Shown one piece after another: positions 1 through 7,550 of a stretch of DNA of 64,000 nt (its first letter is position 1; each line of letters begins with the position of its first letter). Source of the DNA: an uncultured Acetatifactor sp. (GTDB lineage: Bacteria > Bacillota > Clostridia > Lachnospirales > Lachnospiraceae); assembly GCA_910587755.1 (NCBI GenBank), contig CAJUNZ010000003.1:1908-65907 (forward strand). Reading direction: 5' to 3'. Below the pieces are notes generated by a model. The model was given only the letters and a program-made list of their open reading frames with translations, made no database searches and was not told the DNA's origin. The position numbers and the translations under genes are program-made.

Positions 1-72
1 TGCACATCCATTACCTGCTGCATCTGCGGAATCCCGCGCCTGAGTTCCCATGGGTCCTGGCATACCCAATAC

Positions 73-91
73 CCGTCCCCAAAAGGGACGG
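73..91. terminator. GC-rich hairpin (CCGTCCC-CAAAA-GGGACGG), possible 3' end or processing site
   Basis: 7-bp perfect stem with no clear U tract. Confidence 0.3.
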
Positions 92-167
92 CTTCCAATG
101 CCGTTCTTGTTTTTATCTGCTCAGACAGTACCTGCCTTAAGCTATCAAAAGAATTTTCCCGCAGTCC

Positions 168-342
168 TGTTCCCGTTTCCGGTTCTGGTCAAATACAGCC
201 TGACGGCGCATTCATCCACGGAATCCTTCATAATGAACCTGTGTCATCTATTTCTCAATTCAAACCTTACCTGCTTCATCATCACATCTATTCTGAACTC
301 TTAATTCAAATTTTTTCCGGCCTATCCTTTGCCGTCCACGCC
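168..342 (-). ncRNA. Candidate omega/guide RNA region downstream of the dead TnpB
   Basis: Non-coding region directly after the stop, where TnpB/TldR RNAs usually lie. Hairpin potential at 211-237; reads ...GTCAGGCTGTATTTGAC-CAGAACCGG. Position-based inference only. Confidence 0.35.
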
Positions 343-1668
343 TCAAGTCTCACCAGCATTCCCGGCCTTCAGCTTTTTTCCCCGGTTCAGCACATTTACA
401 GCTGTATTCTGTCTCTCCGGCATCTCCTGTCCGCAGGAATTGCAGCGGAATATATCCCCTTCCTTCCTGCCCTCCGCCCCGCAGCGGCAGCATTCGGTGC
501 TGATACCCTTTCCAAACACCTCCGCAAGCTCCACGGACCGTTCCCTGCACTTGCGTTCCAGCCTCTTTTTCACATAGCCTCTCTGCCACATGTTCAGACC
601 CGCATTCACTTTCCGGTTCACTCCTGCTTTCACCATACCAGGAAGTTTTGGAATATACACCACTCCGGGCTTTTCTGTCTCCAGCAGCCGGTTGATCTCC
701 GCATTCACATAAGCGTGCAGCGCCGTCTCCAGCCGCCTCTTTCCCGCAGTATATTTTTTCATGCCCGGATTATTTTCCGCATTTCTGCGGTGACGGGACA
801 GCCGCTCCCTGACATATTCCGTCAGCGCGGACTGATATTCAAAATATTTCTCCCCATACATCTGCCCCGTATGAGTGACAAACATGCACCGAAGCCCCAG
901 GGCCAGGCCGATTTCCCCTTCATATCCTCTAGGGTGCCTCTGCTTTACCTCCACCGGCACATTCAAGGTAATGTTGCCTTCCTTCGGATAAAGCCGAAGG
1001 TATATCTGCCTGGAGTAGCGATTGTTATCCGTGAGCAGAATGAAAAGTCTCTGACGACTCTCTTTCATGGAAATGTATATCCCATGATCGGCATATCTGT
1101 ATCCCTTGGGCGAAATGGTAAATCCATCCGCCGTATCCGTGTGAGGTTTTACCAGGTGTCTCCTGACCTGCCTGCGCAGATACTGGTCCAGCCTGTATGC
1201 ATCCACACCTGCTCTGAGGGCCCCATAAGTCTCCCTCCAGTCCCCTCGAAGATCCGGTTCTCCTCCCGCCAGGACCGCTTCAAAGCAGCGGCTCTGTTTC
1301 ATCACAAAACGCAAATAATGTCTGTCTTCTGCAGTCAGCTCTGCATTTACCTGAATGTTCTTCTCTATCCGGCTCTTGATACGGGTCCATTGGCTTTTAA
1401 TATCACCCAAAGCATCAAAGATAGAGAGGTAAAAGAACACCGATGGAAGTCCCAGCCTCTCCCGCAGCCCGCTTTTGGTCATTTCATTCTGCACCGTATA
1501 GCCTGGATAAATCTTGGGGAGCCCCCCTATACCTCCATACCGGTCATACACAAAATTGCGAACTTTTCTGCAATCTTCCGCAATCTCCTGCAGCCTTGCC
1601 ATATCCCTGACAGAAATCGGTTCCTTGTTATACTGATATACTGTCTTGTATATTGTCTCCTGGGCCAT
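343..1668 (-). CDS. Nuclease-dead TnpB/Cas12f-like protein (TldR-like), 441 aa
   Basis: C-terminal RuvC plus zinc-ribbon layout: EIGLALG (RuvC-I, D->A256), VVYIPKL (RuvC-II, E->P340), ISTECCRCG...FRCNSCG zinc finger, PERQNTAVNV (RuvC-III, D->R419). Start set at ATG 1668 after GAGGGTGG. Confidence 0.85.
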   Translation of the reverse strand: MAQETIYKTVYQYNKEPISVRDMARLQEIAEDCRKVRNFVYDRYGGIGGLPKIYPGYTVQNEMTKSGLRERLGLPSVFFYLSIFDALGDIKSQWTRIKSRIEKNIQVNAELTAEDRHYLRFVMKQSRCFEAVLAGGEPDLRGDWRETYGALRAGVDAYRLDQYLRRQVRRHLVKPHTDTADGFTISPKGYRYADHGIYISMKESRQRLFILLTDNNRYSRQIYLRLYPKEGNITLNVPVEVKQRHPRGYEGEIGLALGLRCMFVTHTGQMYGEKYFEYQSALTEYVRERLSRHRRNAENNPGMKKYTAGKRRLETALHAYVNAEINRLLETEKPGVVYIPKLPGMVKAGVNRKVNAGLNMWQRGYVKKRLERKCRERSVELAEVFGKGISTECCRCGAEGRKEGDIFRCNSCGQEMPERQNTAVNVLNRGKKLKAGNAGET

Positions 1669-1721
1669 AAATCTTTTCCACCCTCTGTCACCCGATAAAT
1701 CTCTCCAGGACTTCCAGTATA

Positions 1722-1750
1722 ATTTCGTAGAATAACTATTTCTACGAAAT
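1722..1750. repeat. Left inverted repeat / putative tyrosine-recombinase crossover site
   Basis: ATTTCGTAGAA-TAACTAT-TTCTACGAAAT, a perfect 11-7-11 palindrome. 1724-1749 is the exact reverse complement of 2149-2174. Confidence 0.85.
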
Positions 1751-1789
1751 CCTGCCGCAAACCTGATATTTTCTGCACCCAAAGCTTGT

Positions 1790-1927
1790 TTGACCAGAAT
1801 TTTGACGGTAAATACCTTTATGAAAGAACCGCCTTTTCGCCCGTCTCACCCTCCGCAGAGCTTGTTTTCTGCGCCTTTTCCAGACAGAGCCAGGACATTT
1901 CCTTGACCAGAATTTTGACGGCGAATA
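1790..1927 (+). repeat. Two 25-bp direct repeats TTGACCAGAATTTTGACGG(TA/CG)AATA (1790-1814, 1903-1927), arm-type-like sites
   Basis: 23/25 identical; internal TTGAC repeat at 12-bp period. A third degenerate copy lies at 2092-2116. Confidence 0.8.
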
Positions 1928-1972
1928 AAATTTTTTCAGGCCCTCTCTGATCAGAAACTTTCTCTGACAAGT

Positions 1973-1999
1973 TAAGAAACTGGATCCCTATGTCGATAG
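1973..1999 (+). promoter_or_regulatory. Possible sigma28/SigD-type promoter
   Basis: TAAG-N15-GTCGATAG versus consensus TAAA-N15-GCCGATAA. A second GTCGATAT lies at 2034-2041. Confidence 0.4.
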
Positions 2000-2091
2000 A
2001 GAAAGTGTTTGTACAGTTTTAGAATAATTTATTGTCGATATCTTTAATATTCTGCCAGAAATTACTTGAAAACTTAATTCCTGAAAAGTGA

Positions 2092-2120
2092 TTGACAAAT
2101 TATTTGACGGTATATATAAT
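2092..2120 (+). promoter_or_regulatory. Perfect sigma70/SigA promoter inside the invertible segment
   Basis: TTGACA (2092-2097), 17 bp, TATAAT (2115-2120). Confidence 0.9.
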
Positions 2121-2147
2121 GAGTACAGTGGCTTTTGCGCCAGAGAG

Positions 2148-2176
2148 GTTTCGTAGAAATAGTTATTCTACGAATA
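2148..2176. repeat. Right inverted repeat / putative tyrosine-recombinase crossover site
   Basis: GTTTCGTAGAA-ATAGTTA-TTCTACGAATA; the spacer is the reverse complement of the left-site spacer. Confidence 0.85.
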
Positions 2177-2391
2177 CCCACATCAAGAAGCACCAGCTGG
2201 GATGTGCTGTATATCGGCTGTTGCTTTATTTTATTTCGTGTTGTTTTACTCTCTTCTTCACAGCAATCACAATACATGGCGTCCCTCCGCAGTTTCCATG
2301 TATTTATGCTTTGATGAGCATATAACAGCATTCATACATAGTGAAGAAAACGAAAAAAGGCTGGTTCCTAAACTGCGGAAGGAGAATTTAT

Positions 2392-3054
2392 ATGCAATTT
2401 GAGCTGATGGCGTCAATGATGTGCGCCAACTATGGCAATCTTGAAAAAGAAGTAAAGGCCTTGGAGGAGGGAGGAATAGACTCTTTCCATATAGATATCA
2501 TGGACGGGCGGTATGTGCCGAACTTTGCCATGTCCCTGAACGATCTGCGGTACATCACTATGGCCACAAAAAAGCCTGTGGACGTGCATTTGATGATAGA
2601 GCACCCCTGCAATAATATCGGTATCTTTTTAGGGTGTCTTCGTAAGGGCGACACGGTATATATCCATCCGGAGGCGGAATACCATCCTTCCACCACCCTG
2701 CAGAAAGTCATCAACGCAGGGATGATTCCCGGTATTGCAATCAATCCCGGCACTTCTGTGGAGACGGTAATGGAGCTTCTTCGCATTGTGAGAAAAGTGC
2801 TTGTGATGTCCGTGAACCCCGGAAATGCCGGACAGATGTACCTGCCCTATGTGGGTAAAAAGATCACCAAACTGCTGGCCCTAAAAGAAGATATGGACTT
2901 TGAGATCTGCTGGGACGGCGCCTGCAGTGCGGACAAGATTCTGGAATATGCCCCCAAGGGAGTGAAAGGGTTTGTGCTGGGCACCACACTGCTCTTCGGA
3001 AAAAAAGAATCCTATGGCGAAACCCTGCAGAATATTCGGGAACTGAAATTTTAG
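2392..3054 (+). CDS. Ribulose-phosphate 3-epimerase family protein (Rpe/AlsE-like)
   Basis: ASMMCAN, FHIDIMDGRYVPNF, DVHLMI, GIAINPGT, VLVMSVNPG motifs; AGGAG SD before ATG 2392. Confidence 0.92.
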   Translation: MQFELMASMMCANYGNLEKEVKALEEGGIDSFHIDIMDGRYVPNFAMSLNDLRYITMATKKPVDVHLMIEHPCNNIGIFLGCLRKGDTVYIHPEAEYHPSTTLQKVINAGMIPGIAINPGTSVETVMELLRIVRKVLVMSVNPGNAGQMYLPYVGKKITKLLALKEDMDFEICWDGACSADKILEYAPKGVKGFVLGTTLLFGKKESYGETLQNIRELKF

Positions 3055-3131
3055 ATTTCAAATTTAAATATGAAAATTGGGAATTCAGAACTTAAATTTA
3101 TAAATTTAGAATTCAAAGCTTAGATTTGAAA
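3042..3131. repeat. Degenerate AT-rich heptamer tandem array (consensus ATTYARA)
   Basis: From 3062: atttaaa tatgaaa attggga attcaga acttaaa tttataa atttaga attcaaa gcttaga tttgaaa. Confidence 0.65.
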
Positions 3132-3142
3132 ATCACACAGAC

Positions 3143-3169
3143 AAAAAAACCTGGTTTAGACAAACCAGG
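3143..3169 (-). terminator. Intrinsic terminator
   Basis: Minus strand CCTGGTTT-GTCT-AAACCAGG followed by T7. Confidence 0.85.
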
Positions 3170-3350
3170 CCCTGAAATGTTAAACTATAGCCAGCCCCAG
3201 AGCATATGGCCCTGCTGTCCGCGACTGACTCCCTGCCAGAGGCTAAGGAATTGTTAAAAGCACAGTTCCAAAATGCTGGAGCTGGCAACGATTCATGAAG
3301 TCCTGAACCACCGATTTTTCCGTGACAAAAACACTTTATAGAAAGAGTCT
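3143..3350 (-). ncRNA. Candidate structured RNA (~200 nt) after the GNAT gene
   Basis: Long stem 3190-3209 with 3268-3286 (a G-U wobble favours the minus strand), inner hairpin, ends in a terminator. No convincing CDS. Confidence 0.4.
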
Positions 3351-3845
3351 TCAAAAACGCTGTAACACCATCCTTTGCTCTATGCAGGGCGTTCCAAGCA
3401 GTATTTCCTGCTCTGTGCCGTCAAAACGAAAGCCATATTTTTCATAAAATCTTATCGCTTTCTCATTCCCCTTCAGCACCCAGAGACAGATTGCAGGGTG
3501 GGCGGCAAGCCTTTCCACCGCCTCATTCATAAGTGCAATTCCCACCTTCCTGCCCTGGTATGCCCGCAGAACATAGAGCGCAAAGATCTCACCATATTCC
3601 GCCATGGTTTCATCCCGATATCTGCCATATCCCGCAAAGCCAATAACCTTATTCCCATCCTTCGCCACCAGCAGATTATCTCTCCATGCACGGGCAATCT
3701 GTTCACAGCGTTCAAGTGTCACCGTCTTCATATATTCCCCATCCACCAGACCCTCATAGGTCTCATGCCAGGACTGAAAATGCACAAACGCCTTACCGCT
3801 GATTTCTTCATCTGTTCTCATCGGCACAATCGTGTACTCTCCCAT
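3351..3845 (-). CDS. GNAT family N-acetyltransferase
   Basis: EIFALYVLRAYQGRKVGIALM (motif A), LWVLKGNEKAIRFYEKYGF. Confidence 0.93.
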   Translation of the reverse strand: MGEYTIVPMRTDEEISGKAFVHFQSWHETYEGLVDGEYMKTVTLERCEQIARAWRDNLLVAKDGNKVIGFAGYGRYRDETMAEYGEIFALYVLRAYQGRKVGIALMNEAVERLAAHPAICLWVLKGNEKAIRFYEKYGFRFDGTEQEILLGTPCIEQRMVLQRF

Positions 3846-3932
3846 GACCGCCCCCTTGGCCCAAGACAAATAGGCTATCCTGAACCGTCTTTTCCCAAAC
3901 TGCCCGCCAGATAAGAAATACAAAAATTTCCC

Positions 3933-5276
3933 TCAGAGTTTGGGATTTTGTATCATAATAGGTTTCCCTGTTTTCTGATACAGCCACACAATGGAACTCC
4001 AGTCGCCGTAGTAGCCGTCGCTCACCGCTATGGCCCGATCCATGCTGGGGGAGTCATCATAGATGCCCCAGCCAGCCTCTCTGTACCTGCACACCATCTC
4101 CCCATACTCCCCCATAAGCTCCGGACGCATGGATGCAAGCGTAGCCTCCGTCAGCGGATGGGGCCTCCACAGCAGCACCACATCTTCCCGGTTCTCCTCA
4201 AAAATCTGCAGGTTTTCCTTGATCTTTTTCATCATGGCCTCACTGTCCTTCAGCAGGGCCGTCACGCTGGTATTGTAGAATATAACTTTTCTGCGGCTGC
4301 CATCCTCCCTCTGAATCAGCCTGTCCCAGCTCTCCGGCAGCTCAAAGTCCTCTCTCCGCAGACCGCAGACCCGATCCACCTTGGGGGAGCCCAGTCCCAG
4401 TATCTTTTTCTCCCATGTAGGCCGAAGACTCTCATCTGTGTGCCTGGTGAGCACATCCACATAAATCTGCCGCATGGCCTCCGACTGCACCACCACCCGG
4501 TCCGCATTCATCACCCCTGCAGTGGTGACAAAATGCTCCATTCCTTCCACTGCCTCCTTATCGGAGGGGTCGATCTCGGCCAGGATAAAGTAGGGAATAT
4601 AGACCAGCTTATCTGTAAACTGCTTCAGGTTTTTAGAGTAAAAAAACGGAGGCACACTGGTGACAAAATTTCCCTCATCATAAGGGTTGTGAATGAAAAT
4701 AACATCCGGGTGTCTGGCCTCAAAATCATAGGATTCATAGCCCATCACCGGCACTTCCTCCGGGTACTGGGCAATCTCATAGTGCAGTTCCCCGAAAGAA
4801 CCGTCAGGATTCTTGTCATAATAGGGAATAGGGATAACCAGTGCCCTGCAGTCCGGATCTTCATCCGCCGCCTTCCACACAGACTCCAGAGAATCCCACA
4901 TGGAAGCTTTATAAGGCAGAAACACCACTTCCCTCTGAATCCGAATCTCATGGTTGATGGAATTTTCCACCCGCACCAGAAGTTTTCTGAGCTTTTTCTG
5001 CATCTGCCATGTATTCACGGAAGCTCCCTCCAGAAGCTTCTCACAGAACTGGTACAGAACCTCGCAGTACTCCTCCAGGCAGCGGACCGTCTCCGTCCCC
5101 TCCCCCTCCGTACTGTCAACCAGAGTGCCGATACCTATGGCCCCCTGCTGACACTGCTCCATAAGCTCTGCCGCGCCCTGAACCCGTTTATTCTCAATCA
5201 GTTTCACAATCTCCCCATGTGCCTCACTGAGCACTTCTATGGTCTCCAGGCACTGCTTCTTCTGAAAATTTCTCAT
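3933..5276 (-). CDS. CDP-glycerol/polyol glycerophosphotransferase (TagF-like) family protein
   Basis: LGSPKVD, LLWRPHP, YYGDWSSIVWLYQKTGKPI motifs; next to CDP-polyol synthesis genes. Confidence 0.65.
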   Translation of the reverse strand: MRNFQKKQCLETIEVLSEAHGEIVKLIENKRVQGAAELMEQCQQGAIGIGTLVDSTEGEGTETVRCLEEYCEVLYQFCEKLLEGASVNTWQMQKKLRKLLVRVENSINHEIRIQREVVFLPYKASMWDSLESVWKAADEDPDCRALVIPIPYYDKNPDGSFGELHYEIAQYPEEVPVMGYESYDFEARHPDVIFIHNPYDEGNFVTSVPPFFYSKNLKQFTDKLVYIPYFILAEIDPSDKEAVEGMEHFVTTAGVMNADRVVVQSEAMRQIYVDVLTRHTDESLRPTWEKKILGLGSPKVDRVCGLRREDFELPESWDRLIQREDGSRRKVIFYNTSVTALLKDSEAMMKKIKENLQIFEENREDVVLLWRPHPLTEATLASMRPELMGEYGEMVCRYREAGWGIYDDSPSMDRAIAVSDGYYGDWSSIVWLYQKTGKPIMIQNPKL

Positions 5277-5321
5277 TCCTGCCCCCTGCCGGGCACTGTA
5301 CGCGCCCTAAATCATATTCTT

Positions 5322-5391
5322 AAAACCGGATCCGATATACCTGATCCGATATATCAGATCCGAAAAACCAAATCCAAAAAAACAGATCCAA
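5322..5391. repeat. Five tandem 14-bp degenerate repeats
   Basis: aaaaccggatccga tatacctgatccga tatatcagatccga aaaaccaaatccaa aaaaacagatccaa. Confidence 0.8.
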
Positions 5392-5508
5392 AAAACTTGA
5401 AACCATCCCTTTCCTGCCTGCGGAATTTCCTGTCCGACGGCATTCCTCCGCCGGATATCTTCCCGTTCCCGCCCTTAGAACTGTGCCGAAAAAAGATGTA
5501 CGCCAAGT

Positions 5509-6564
5509 TCAAAACATTGTCATAATTTTAATATAATCCTGGGTCTTATCCCGCATAATATGAAGCCCCCGATGCAGCTCCTCCAGAGAATATCTGTGAG
5601 TGATAAGCCTGCCGGGATCCACCCGCTTCGCCCCAAGACGTTCCATGCAGTAGTTCCAGTCATCATCCGCCCCATGGGTAAACGAAGAGTTCCAGGTTCC
5701 CGTGATCCGCAGCTGATGGCGCAGAATTTTCCAATAGGTTTCCATCTCCAAAGCCATGGAGGAGGCAGGATTTCCCATGAGACAGATCCGCCCCCCTGGA
5801 GCAGTGTTTTCCACCGCCTGGGCCACCGTCTCATTCTTTCCCACACACTCAAAGAACACATCCGCCCCCAGGCCGCCGGTCCGCTCCCGGATCCACTGAC
5901 CCGGATCCTGAGTCCTGCTGTCACAGTAGTCCCCCGATTCCATCCCCAGTTCCAAAACCATCTTCCGCTGGGCCTCCTTGTTGCCCACCACCAGAATCCT
6001 GCCCGCCTCCTGGACCCCCGCCTCTCTCAAAAACATCAAAAGCAGCAGGCCGATGGTTCCCAGGCCGCACACCACAGCGGTCTCCCCCTTCTCCGGCAGA
6101 GCCCTCCGCATGGCATGCACCGCCACCGCCATAGGTTCCAGCATGGCAGCCTCCTCATAGGAAACCTGTTCCGGCAGCGGAATCAGATTCCAGGCCGGAA
6201 CCGCCGCATACTCTCCAAAGCCCCCGTCCCTGCGGGAACCCAGATAGCCATAGTTTTGGCACATCTCGAACTGTCCTTTTCTGCAGGGCAGGCACTCCCT
6301 GCAGGGAATCAGCGGAAACACACCTGCCCGCCGCCCCTGCCAGGCAGGATCCACTCCCGGTCCCGTCCGGACCACCAGGCCGGAAAACTCATGCCCCGGA
6401 ATCAGGGGATGTACATGGGCCCCCGTCCTGTATATTCTCGGAATATCCGACCCGCAGATCCCCGCTGCCTTTACCTGCAGCAACACTTCCCCCTTAGCCA
6501 GAATCGGCTCCTCCACCGTCTCCCAGCGCAGGTCATCCACCCCCTGCAGCACCCATGCCTTCAT
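5509..6564 (-). CDS. Zinc-dependent polyol(-phosphate) dehydrogenase (GatD/TarJ-like)
   Basis: GICGSD, GHEFSG, CRECLPC...C zinc site, GLGTIG Rossmann motif. Confidence 0.9.
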   Translation of the reverse strand: MKAWVLQGVDDLRWETVEEPILAKGEVLLQVKAAGICGSDIPRIYRTGAHVHPLIPGHEFSGLVVRTGPGVDPAWQGRRAGVFPLIPCRECLPCRKGQFEMCQNYGYLGSRRDGGFGEYAAVPAWNLIPLPEQVSYEEAAMLEPMAVAVHAMRRALPEKGETAVVCGLGTIGLLLLMFLREAGVQEAGRILVVGNKEAQRKMVLELGMESGDYCDSRTQDPGQWIRERTGGLGADVFFECVGKNETVAQAVENTAPGGRICLMGNPASSMALEMETYWKILRHQLRITGTWNSSFTHGADDDWNYCMERLGAKRVDPGRLITHRYSLEELHRGLHIMRDKTQDYIKIMTMF

Positions 6565-6606
6565 CCCTTTCCTCCTCCACAAAAACTTCCGGCAGCGCCC
6601 ATCTTC

Positions 6607-7314
6607 TTATTCCCCGGAACATCTGCGGGCAAGAATCTCCTCAAACCGTCTCAGATCCTCCATCGTGGTTATCTTGAAATTCCCCTCATCCCCGGGGATT
6701 ATGGCAATGTCCATGCCCGCCAAAACCGCAGGTTCCGTGGAACCGTTGATTCCCCTGATCCCATCCGGAAGCAGTCTCAGGTTGGCCTCATAATACCGCC
6801 CCAGCCGAAACACCTCCGGTGCCTGCCCTGCAAAAATTTCACTGCGTTTTAACAGGGATGTGATGGTCTTCCCGTCGCTGCTGGCGTACACTGTATCCTT
6901 CATGGGAAGTACCGGCAGAACACCCTCGTGGGACTGTGCCGCCTCCAGGCAGGCCGAGACCATCTCCTCCGTCAGCAGAGGCCTGGCAGCGTCATGGATG
7001 AGCACACAGTCCTCCTCCCCTCCATAGGCCCTGATATCCTCCAGCCCCTGGAGAATAGAAAGCTGTCTGTTCTCCCCCGGATCAGAAAAACCCCGGAATT
7101 TTCCATCCCTGTCAAATGTCTCCAGACACTCCCGAATCTTTTCCCTCCAACAGGGCTGAGCCACAATCTGAATGGCGTCCACCCCCCTGTGCAGGGCCAG
7201 ACATTCTATGCAGTACCCTATGACGGGCCGTCCCCCTGCCTCAATATACTGCTTTGGAATCTCCGCCCCCAGGCGCAGCCCTGCACCCCCGGAGAGTATC
7301 AGTGCAATATTCAT
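6607..7314 (-). CDS. IspD/TarI family cytidylyltransferase
   Basis: LSGGAGLRLG...PKQY, LIHDAARP, QAPEVF, NFKITT motifs. Confidence 0.92.
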   Translation of the reverse strand: MNIALILSGGAGLRLGAEIPKQYIEAGGRPVIGYCIECLALHRGVDAIQIVAQPCWREKIRECLETFDRDGKFRGFSDPGENRQLSILQGLEDIRAYGGEEDCVLIHDAARPLLTEEMVSACLEAAQSHEGVLPVLPMKDTVYASSDGKTITSLLKRSEIFAGQAPEVFRLGRYYEANLRLLPDGIRGINGSTEPAVLAGMDIAIIPGDEGNFKITTMEDLRRFEEILARRCSGE

Positions 7315-7417
7315 AGTTCCCCCATCCTGGACCAACTGCCTTCCCAAATCAACATGGCCCCTGCGAATACCTCACCCCGCAGACCAATAAACAAAAAAAC
7401 ATCGAATCTGCAATGCC

Positions 7418-7455
7418 AAAAATTCCCATGCAGCCCTTCTAAAGCTGCACAGGAA
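7418..7455 (-). terminator. Terminator-like hairpin in the 5' leader of the cytidylyltransferase operon
   Basis: TTCCTGTGCAGC/GCTGCATGGGAA stem plus TTTTT on the minus strand. Confidence 0.6.
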
Positions 7456-7487
7456 AGTCAAAACACACGGTTCATTTCTATGATAAT

Positions 7488-7516
7488 ATGTTAGCACAGA
7501 GCCCGTGAAAATGCAA
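7488..7516 (-). promoter_or_regulatory. SigA-type promoter
   Basis: TTGCAT-17-TAACAT with TG extension. Confidence 0.55.
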
Positions 7517-7550
7517 GATTTTCTCCTCCAAAAGACATTCAAAATCCCCT

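Follow-up and report, generated by a model that had tools for sequence, protein, structure and literature searches.

What controls a gene for a predicted nuclease-dead TnpB that diverges from an epimerase gene across a segment bounded by inverted sites? We addressed this question for a locus at the left end of a 64,000-nucleotide (nt) stretch of DNA from an uncultured Acetatifactor sp. (contig CAJUNZ010000003.1 of GCA_910587755.1, positions 1,908–65,907, forward strand), which is referred to here as the window. The window's contig is 66 kb long and is labelled C3, and its own genome, labelled G000, is 82% complete. The initial annotation of the window had described a dead TnpB gene on the minus strand and an rpe-like gene on the plus strand, diverging from a segment with inverted sites, and all of these elements were located as claimed. 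The tldR-like gene (343..1668, minus strand; hereafter tldR) encodes a TnpB homologue of 441 amino acids (aa) and is first in its operon. We lean towards an explanation in which a tyrosine-recombinase inverton would turn a promoter between rpe and an operon of tldR, an omegaRNA-like scaffold and a TagF-like gene. Private spacers would keep such switches apart, and TldR with its RNA would bind DNA without cutting it, thereby coupling the state of a glycan decoration to silencing elsewhere.

Homologues were collected at several scales. A search of 1.84 billion protein representatives returned 791 matches with E ≤ 1e-10, of which 168 had E ≤ 1e-30, and a scan of species representatives gave 433 relatives. 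The locus statistics below cover the best 80 of these 433, whose record titles are nearly all Lachnospiraceae or allied Clostridia. Of 301 genomes screened from the same taxonomic family, 11 carry a protein of the 441-aa type; genomic contexts were taken from 20 kb around tldR in 11 relatives of this family, with 71 neighbour proteins scanned. Sequencing evidence comes from Logan contigs, in which rare variants are dropped, for two DNA runs (X6, X9) and two RNA runs (X15, X16).

Inverted sites and promoter segments upstream of tldR

Two recombination-type sites were found by an inverted-repeat search between the divergent genes. The left, tldR-proximal site (1722..1750) is an 11-7-11 palindrome with the plus-strand spacer TAACTAT, and the right site (2149..2174) is an inverted copy of it, a 9-7-9 palindrome with the spacer ATAGTTA. 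The arms (1724–1749 and 2149–2174) are 26 nt each, 100% complementary and separated by 399 nt, and the two 7-nt spacers are mutually reverse-complementary. By an arithmetic estimate, a perfect 26-nt inverted repeat within 1.1 kb has a chance expectation of about 1e-10.

The putative invertible segment between the sites (1751..2148, about 398 nt) holds a consensus sigma-70 promoter, TTGACA-17-TATAAT (2092..2120, plus strand), which matches at 12/12 positions and faces the right site and rpe. Inverted repeats thus enclose a promoter-bearing segment, as expected of an inverton. A second sigma-70 match (10/12) at 1903–1931 points in the same direction, whereas the best minus-strand promoter towards tldR in the intergenic space reaches 9/12, at 1744–1716 inside the left site. 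These scores uphold the earlier statement that one clear SigA promoter faces rpe and that none comparable faces the TnpB gene. The segment also contains three direct repeats of the form TTGACC/A..TTTGACGG (TTGAC-N7-TTTGACGG) at 1790–1814, 1903–1927 and 2092–2116, the last of which is the promoter itself. They keep their positions in a paralogous locus on contig C82 of the same genome and may be binding sites for a regulator or for a recombinase accessory factor.

The site is repeated at six places in the window's own genome, and it lies upstream of all three tldR paralogues found there by about 80–125 nt. These paralogues are the window's copy on C3, one on C10 (63% identity) and one on C82 (58%, truncated by the contig end). 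The C82 paralogue repeats the whole layout of site, three direct repeats, outward promoter and inverted site, with a different spacer. The C10 site, the window pair and an orphan site on C135 have an identical spacer, so these four sites could in principle recombine between loci.

Comparable sites are widespread among the relatives. Tyrosine-type site pairs with reverse-complementary 7-nt spacers bound segments of 152–2581 nt in 25/80 loci, and pairs of hix-like palindromes bound segments of 79–119 nt in 30/80, so that a pair of one type or the other stands just upstream of tldR in 55/80 loci. The remaining loci have another inverted-repeat pair (2/80), a single tyrosine-type site (8/80), no site by the criteria used (11/80) or too little upstream sequence (4/80). 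Tyrosine-type 11-7-11 sites occur in 33/80 loci, the window's included, and in relatives the same site type lies 50–190 nt upstream of tldR. We compared 64 upstream windows with 63 control windows taken inside the downstream operons: pairs of 9-7-9 palindromes were present in 20/64 versus 0/63, and inverted repeats of at least 16 nt in 32/64 versus 1/63.

Recombinase genes accompany these sites. A tyrosine recombinase homologue lies within about 3.9 kb upstream of tldR in 28/80 loci (18 on the tldR strand and 10 opposite), and a serine recombinase homologue of the resolvase/invertase type (PF00239, with a C-terminal helix-turn-helix judged from reading) lies within the same distance in 12/80, which means that a recombinase of either type adjoins tldR in 40/80. 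The site type tracks the neighbouring recombinase, tyrosine recombinases being found with 11-7-11 sites and serine recombinases with hix-like sites, and the long tyrosine-type segments enclose the recombinase gene. Spacers are locus-specific and are paired as reverse complements. The test set in advance by the initial annotation, that homologues should keep the inverted sites and a nearby tyrosine recombinase, was therefore borne out.

Both orientations of such segments can be observed by comparing relatives. In seven locus pairs the site-bounded segment aligns in reverse while both flanks align forward. The reversed stretch measures 2.29 kb at 78% identity in L049/L056 and 1475 nt at 88% identity in L039/L046; the segment is likewise reversed between collinear flanks in L048/L056, L048/L060 and L045/L064. 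In L043/L107, 461 nt are reversed at 71% identity and the coding sequence runs forward at 84%, and in L082/L085, which are paralogues in one genome, 158 nt are reversed. The 11-7-11 sites belong to a family of recombination sites whose pairs enclose promoter segments, and across relatives these segments occur in either orientation. In the 30 hix-type segments, a conserved promoter of the form TTAAGTTT-N11-NCGATA faces tldR in 3, faces away in 19 and was not found in 8; it resembles the FliA/sigma-28 consensus.

The TnpB-like protein, its RNA and the adjoining genes

The open reading frame (ORF) of tldR spans 343..1782 on the minus strand, and a start at 1668 yields the 441-aa protein. Its sole Pfam match is Cas12f1-like_TNB (PF07282), at 27.2 bits against a cut-off of 26.3, and the NCBIfam model guided_TnpB matches with E 5e-15 and 55.6 bits, under the model cut-off of 100. 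A profile search matched Cas12f/TnpB chains at E 1e-7. An AlphaFold2 model (pLDDT 82.5) was searched with Foldseek and placed Cas12f and TnpB complexes on top (E 6e-13 to 3e-11, template modelling score about 0.34). The protein belongs to the TnpB/Cas12f superfamily, with a RuvC-fold core and a C-terminal zinc-ribbon (TNB).

The catalytic residues of the RuvC domain have been replaced. In an alignment of the window protein with 11 homologues (A1, 12 sequences in total), GLALG, YIPKL and ERQNTA stand at the three RuvC motifs, and the replacements occur in 12/12 proteins (D to A/S/P, E to P/V/A/R and D to R/K). When distant relatives drawn from the search of 1.84 billion representatives are added (A2), P0030, P0038, P0047, P0060, P0079, P0098, P0118, P0130 and P0148 retain GIDKG and xE[DEN]L; the third motif, D-x-N-A-A, is retained in 6/9 of them but not in P0079, P0130 and P0148. 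In an alignment with Cas12f, a K stands at the third-motif Asp position of the window protein. The window protein is thus predicted to be a nuclease-dead TnpB that has lost the RuvC D-E-D triad, in agreement with the initial annotation, and a structured RNA follows its gene. RNA contigs from two studies (X15, X16) cover tldR.

This omegaRNA-like scaffold was recognised by conserved motifs and by RNAalifold. It begins at the tldR stop codon and is about 479 nt long in the window's own genome; its 5' part, about 342 nt, lies in the window (1..342, minus strand), and the 3' end with the candidate guide falls outside it, about 136 nt beyond the left edge, with an end near G000:C3:1771. The motif set is present in 75/80 relatives. 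From 41 sequences, RNAalifold proposed 37 pairs, 24 of them with compensatory changes, and a long-range pair closes the scaffold; in Rfam, no family matches the scaffold or the switch. Conservation falls sharply past the scaffold end ...CCTTATT (...CCAATRTGCCTTATT), which fits a boundary between scaffold and guide. RNA contigs span the scaffold region but cannot define RNA ends, and the guide is a candidate only. On the strength of the covariation, tldR is predicted to have a cognate, structured, omegaRNA-like RNA. We had also considered a stand-alone guide RNA gene on C135 (promoter, hairpin, variable stretch and terminator), which was rejected: its hairpin is one of two recombination-type sites, and the RNA that is actually conserved lies behind tldR.

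Two observations concern the stretch past the scaffold. Of the near-identical paralogues L022 (G081:C3) and L021 (G081:C11), one has an insertion of about 57 nt directly past the scaffold end; it duplicates the last scaffold bases and introduces a different following sequence with its own hairpin, and it looks like a replaced guide when the two paralogues are compared. In L048, L049, L057, L060 and their relatives, the post-scaffold sequence (AATGAGCCGTGCAG...) is itself conserved and is followed by a long hairpin, within 0–90 nt after the scaffold end. In this AATGAGCCGTGCAG... subgroup, 14/16 bases match the 5' end of the same genome's large signal recognition particle (SRP) RNA gene, right behind its promoter; the gene was identified at L134:1250-1510 (Rfam RF01854, 178 bits). 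The two sequences may stand in a target relation, may have an Alu-like RNA motif in common or may match by chance.

With its scaffold, tldR heads a TagF-like glycan-decoration operon. On C3, an ORF of at least 541 aa after tldR is 41% identical over 541 aa to the TagF-like protein of L025, and 11 relatives have a same-strand protein of 569–848 aa without a Pfam match directly after tldR. Further operon genes in relatives encode FkbM methyltransferases, LicD, cytidylyltransferases, GDPD, DegT aminotransferase and ATP-grasp proteins, together with SIS, HAD-nucleotidyltransferase, GHMP kinase, GT2 and radical-SAM enzymes. The link is to non-transposon genes and is stable, the TagF-like and glycan enzyme genes lying on the same strand as tldR in the annotated relatives. 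The 71 neighbour proteins scanned include neither an IS200/IS605 transposase nor any CsrA or flagellin domain, and csrA lies on other contigs in 5/5 genomes tested. The gene set resembles the flagellin type-A modification genes of Clostridioides difficile.

On the other side of the switch, a 220-aa Ribul_P_3_epim ORF opens at 2392, the first ATG preceded by GGAAGGAGA. It encodes an rpe-like sugar-phosphate 3-epimerase (2392..3054, plus strand; PF00834, E 2e-44), a second, divergent paralogue that scores under the equivalog cut-offs; the better-scoring rpe of the genome is on C30. The leader of this gene, downstream of the right site, contains a 14-nt inverted repeat (2282–2295 and 2370–2383, 93% complementary) whose hairpin covers the ribosome-binding site and may act as a translational control element or attenuator. 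The initial annotation took rpe to be the partner in the switch. At the window the promoter does face rpe, but the off side of the C82 copy runs into a terminator and the other side of the metagenome contig L030 is a second tldR, two tldR genes diverging there from one hix-type switch; an rpe partner is therefore not a conserved feature.

Beyond rpe, a convergent cluster of four minus-strand genes (3351..7314) was identified by Pfam- and NCBIfam-type profile matches. It comprises a GNAT acetyltransferase (3351–3848), a 447-aa TagF-like transferase with a weak Glyphos_transf match (3933–5276), a Zn-dehydrogenase (5509–6567) and an IspD or ribitol-5-P cytidylyltransferase-like protein (6607–7314). 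Over 444 aa, its 447-aa member shares 59% identity with the N-terminal half of an 821-aa protein encoded directly after tldR in L025. With its IspD/ribitol-5-P cytidylyltransferase-like and TagF-like members, the cluster supports the earlier remark that genes for cytidine diphosphate (CDP)-polyols lie next door.

Orientation, recombinase and competing explanations

Put together, these elements suggest the following sequence of events. As assembled, the segment promoter would transcribe through the right site into the auxiliary rpe-like gene. A recombinase acting in trans would exchange strands within the 7-nt spacers, and the flipped promoter would then transcribe through the left site into tldR, the omegaRNA-like scaffold and an operon for a TagF-like polyol-phosphate transferase that runs off the contig. 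Locus-specific spacers would keep each site pair private. The TldR-RNA complex would bind DNA by guide complementarity without cutting, so that switching on one glycan-decoration operon would silence some other locus. The initial annotation had proposed an exclusive choice between the epimerase and the dead TnpB; the promoter segment does lie between both, but the alternative to the epimerase is a whole operon (tldR, omegaRNA and TagF-like gene) and not a lone regulator. We infer that the window copy still flips, which recombinase acts on it, that repression is RNA-guided and has a target, and that the glycan acceptor would be flagellin or a wall polymer.

The best candidate for the recombinase is encoded elsewhere in the genome. 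Four homologous tyrosine recombinases were found, on C22, C43, C111 and C112; each of the last three is enclosed by an inverted 9-7-9 site pair of its own, the spacers being reverse-complementary. The C22 recombinase, an orphan, would be the most plausible actor at the window switch: it shares 67% identity with the recombinase next to tldR in L026, a locus with half-sites similar to those of the window. The other three recombinases form cassettes between inverted 9-7-9 sites with cassette-specific spacers (C43:5024-6724, C111:861-2612 and C112:5551-7308; L119–L121), and downstream of each lies an operon of three genes (about 270, 610 and 520 aa), none of which has a Pfam match. These cassettes may be another family of phase-variable operons.

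The RNA runs offer a weak hint of flipped molecules. Although the sole strong promoter faces away from it, tldR has RNA cover. RNA contigs over tldR end at the segment-facing edge of the left site (1748/1749); cover is absent at 1820–2140 in both runs and resumes at 2152 or 2237. The lack of cover inside the segment is no evidence on its own. The pattern would fit mRNAs made by a subpopulation with the segment flipped, their short leader being trimmed as far as the stem-loop of the site.

Several observations weigh against this scheme. The initial annotation expected both orientations at the window locus, but the flipped orientation was seen in 0/4 sequences: the window, the metagenome contig L037 from a near-identical strain, which shares the window orientation, and DNA runs X6 and X9, which traverse 1–3200 without a difference from the window. 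No strand-changing joint was found in the four Logan-contig runs, in which rare variants are dropped and where a short flipped-junction contig could hide among 15 loose ends and 10 uninspected pieces. No recombinase is found near the switch: the 66-kb contig C3 carries no recombinase homologue. The 5' boundary of the RNA at the site fits equally well with a hairpin-protected, processed end of a transcript from another promoter. Some copies of the switch in the same genome may be decayed: the C10 paralogue has a single proximal site (C10:26329-26355), and the C82 tldR and the C135 switch are interrupted, where their contigs end, by a repeat that both have. This repeat of about 50 nt is common to C82:1-70, inside tldR at about residue 290, and C135:4600-4673, inside the switch segment. 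It probably marks one end of an insertion element present in several copies, where assembly failed to continue, and the C82 and C135 copies may therefore be disrupted.

The searches for a target point in the same direction, and the claim that a flip could reach distant targets through a guide RNA gained no target from them. In the window's own genome, the post-scaffold sequences of C3 and C10 have no second match of at least 13 nt; their exact matches of 12 nt or longer are chance-level 12-mers only, and no guide match was found in the upstream regions of its flagellin genes (on C14 and C92). Across 65 loci, guides matched own-locus upstream regions at a mean of 10.97 of 16 positions and those of other loci at 10.88, and in 9 genomes the cross-match of guides to paralogue loci was not above controls. 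A 20-nt guide pattern found its self-site alone in 2/3 genomes searched. A 16-nt pattern gave noisy matches in five genomes, one of them the 5' end of the SRP RNA gene (14/16) and the others paralogous scaffold ends. These target searches are weak, being made without a target-adjacent motif (TAM), and guides may be as short as 9–11 nt.

The strongest competing explanation, which we regard as unlikely but by no means negligible, is a fossil switch: the sites of the family would be genuine and the window copy locked facing rpe, with tldR transcribed from a weak or unrecognised promoter and the transcribed site serving as a 5' stem-loop that stabilises both divergent mRNAs. The single orientation in 4/4 sequences, the contig free of recombinases and the decayed look of the C10, C82 and C135 paralogues all favour it, as do RNA contigs that start at the hairpin base of the left (1748/1749) and of the right site (2152). 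It does not readily account for arms that are still 26/26 identical around exactly reverse-complementary spacers, which would be unexpected without selection or recent activity. Nor does it sit well with the absence of any minus-strand promoter above 9/12 upstream of tldR, with the lack of RNA cover upstream of the site or with the homologous recombinases present in the genome.

A second alternative concerns the RNA. The TnpB-like protein might act in cis and not as a trans repressor: bound to the scaffold within the leader of its own operon, it would govern how the TagF-like gene is processed, antiterminated or translated, in which case the post-scaffold sequence would be no DNA guide. The scaffold is indeed located in the operon leader, the next start codon is only about 25–35 nt past the scaffold end in many relatives (L039, L072, L073, L081), the post-scaffold sequence is a conserved structured element in some loci, and no DNA target was found. 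However, characterised TldRs are reported to bind DNA with guides of as few as 9–11 nt plus a TAM (10.1101/2023.11.30.569447), and such targets could not be detected by our searches without a TAM; the sharp drop in conservation after ...CCTTATT also looks like a scaffold-guide boundary. We consider a cis role rather unlikely.

Finally, that the inverted sites are mobile-element ends that came with the TnpB gene and form no switch (miniature inverted-repeat transposable element (MITE)- or insertion sequence (IS)-like terminal inverted repeats, or IS200/IS605 end hairpins) was rejected as very improbable, since, for all that TnpB genes descend from transposons and the site recurs at six genome places, the paralogues are only 58–63% identical with no adjoining IS200/IS605-type transposase, the features of IS200/IS605 or IS607 elements were not found, each locus has spacers of its own that pair as reverse complements, the segments lie reversed in place while their flanks stay collinear, and the site class co-varies with the type of the neighbouring recombinase.

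Relation to known systems

The promoter inverton upstream of a tldR operon, which we continue to favour, would place a large clade (433 loci; 168 cluster representatives at E ≤ 1e-30) at a fixed position, where tldR directly follows an invertible promoter and precedes the genes for glycan decoration. RNA-guided regulation would thereby be connected with phase-variable surface structures of gut commensals that are abundant and, by their record titles, include cultured mouse-gut isolates. That two unrelated recombinase families were recruited to the same position speaks for selection of stochastic ON/OFF switching of the TldR operon as such. The locus-specific 7-nt spacers would form a simple code for which sites recombine, and cultured carriers such as Schaedlerella arabinosiphila DSM 106076 and Acetatifactor muris DSM 23669 make experiments feasible.

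Parts of this arrangement have counterparts in well-known switches. In the flagellar switch of C. difficile, the trans-acting tyrosine recombinase RecV inverts short promoter or leader segments and produces ON and OFF populations. The tldR loci share with it a Clostridia host, short promoter-bearing segments and a tyrosine recombinase that would act in trans, but they place an RNA-guided protein under the switch, and the RecV repeats are simple inverted repeats rather than 11-7-11 palindromes. The capsular polysaccharide loci of Bacteroides have invertible promoters and leading UpxY/UpxZ regulators, with several phase-variable glycan operons per genome. There, as here, a locus-specific regulator gene comes first behind the invertible promoter; the Bacteroides regulators, unlike TldR, are NusG-like proteins and inhibitors, and the cross-locus inhibition shown there is conjectured here. 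As a tentative extension that we ourselves doubt, Lachnospiraceae might choose among surface or flagellar glycan decorations by a lottery that spans the genome, in which each inverton-gated locus would carry a 7-nt spacer as its private address for a shared family of tyrosine recombinases and begin with a dead-TnpB/omegaRNA module that would silence competing loci through RNA-guided binding to DNA, as an RNA-programmed counterpart of the UpxY/UpxZ hierarchy. The window switch would in addition reroute pentose-phosphate flux (rpe) towards CDP-ribitol when the TldR operon is off.

The logic also recalls Salmonella Hin/fljBA, where an invertible promoter drives a structural function and a repressor of the alternative function (cited in PMC13418256). 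FljA, however, is a protein repressor, and the recombinases that lie inside the segment in the tldR family are of the tyrosine and not the serine type.

Dead-TnpB regulators were discovered recently, and one report describes the roles of most clades as unknown (10.64898/2026.09.22.753285). For the fliC- and oppF-associated TldRs, TAM-flanked promoter targets and repression are documented (10.1101/2023.11.30.569447; 10.64898/2026.09.22.753285). The proteins of our clade resemble these TldRs in their lost RuvC residues, in a guide-RNA-type scaffold that adjoins the gene's 3' end and in a stable link to non-transposon genes. They differ in their gene neighbours, in the inverton that would control expression and in that our searches found no target.

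The closest system is the one described in section 11 of PMC13418256 (bioRxiv 10.1101/2025.07.22.666180; 2026 Nature Microbiology), which reports hin invertase genes with csrA-tldR loci in Oscillibacter/Flavonifractor and, in Flavonifractor plautii, inversions of about 120 bp of a FliA-dependent promoter upstream of csrA-tldR. Coupling of an inverton to a TldR, which the initial annotation had believed undescribed, is therefore already on record. In the supplement of that paper, Lachnospiraceae, Schaedlerella and Acetatifactor give 0 matches, and the 2 Dorea rows are D-E-D TnpBs; the host names of our clade were not found in the supplements of PMC10705468, where accessions without organism names are possible. 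By eye, the N-termini of the published csrA-TldR proteins differ from those of the window clade.

The csrA-tldR loci and ours have in common a nuclease-dead TnpB and a guide RNA (a candidate in ours) behind a short invertible promoter beside a site-specific recombinase. Our serine-type relatives match the csrA-tldR design closely (12/80 with a Resolvase-type gene, 79–119-nt segments and the TTAAGTTT-N11-NCGATA promoter). What appears to be new here, judging from sequence, is the covarying omegaRNA-like scaffold, the TagF-like operon, the tyrosine-recombinase class and the absence of csrA linkage. Unlike the csrA-tldR loci, our clade is unlinked to csrA in the five genomes tested and has no flagellin among the scanned neighbours, and its tldR genes head TagF-like glycan operons. 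The window class uses tyrosine recombinases and 11-7-11 sites, with the recombinase often inside the segment, and the other face of the switch may carry a metabolic gene or a second tldR.

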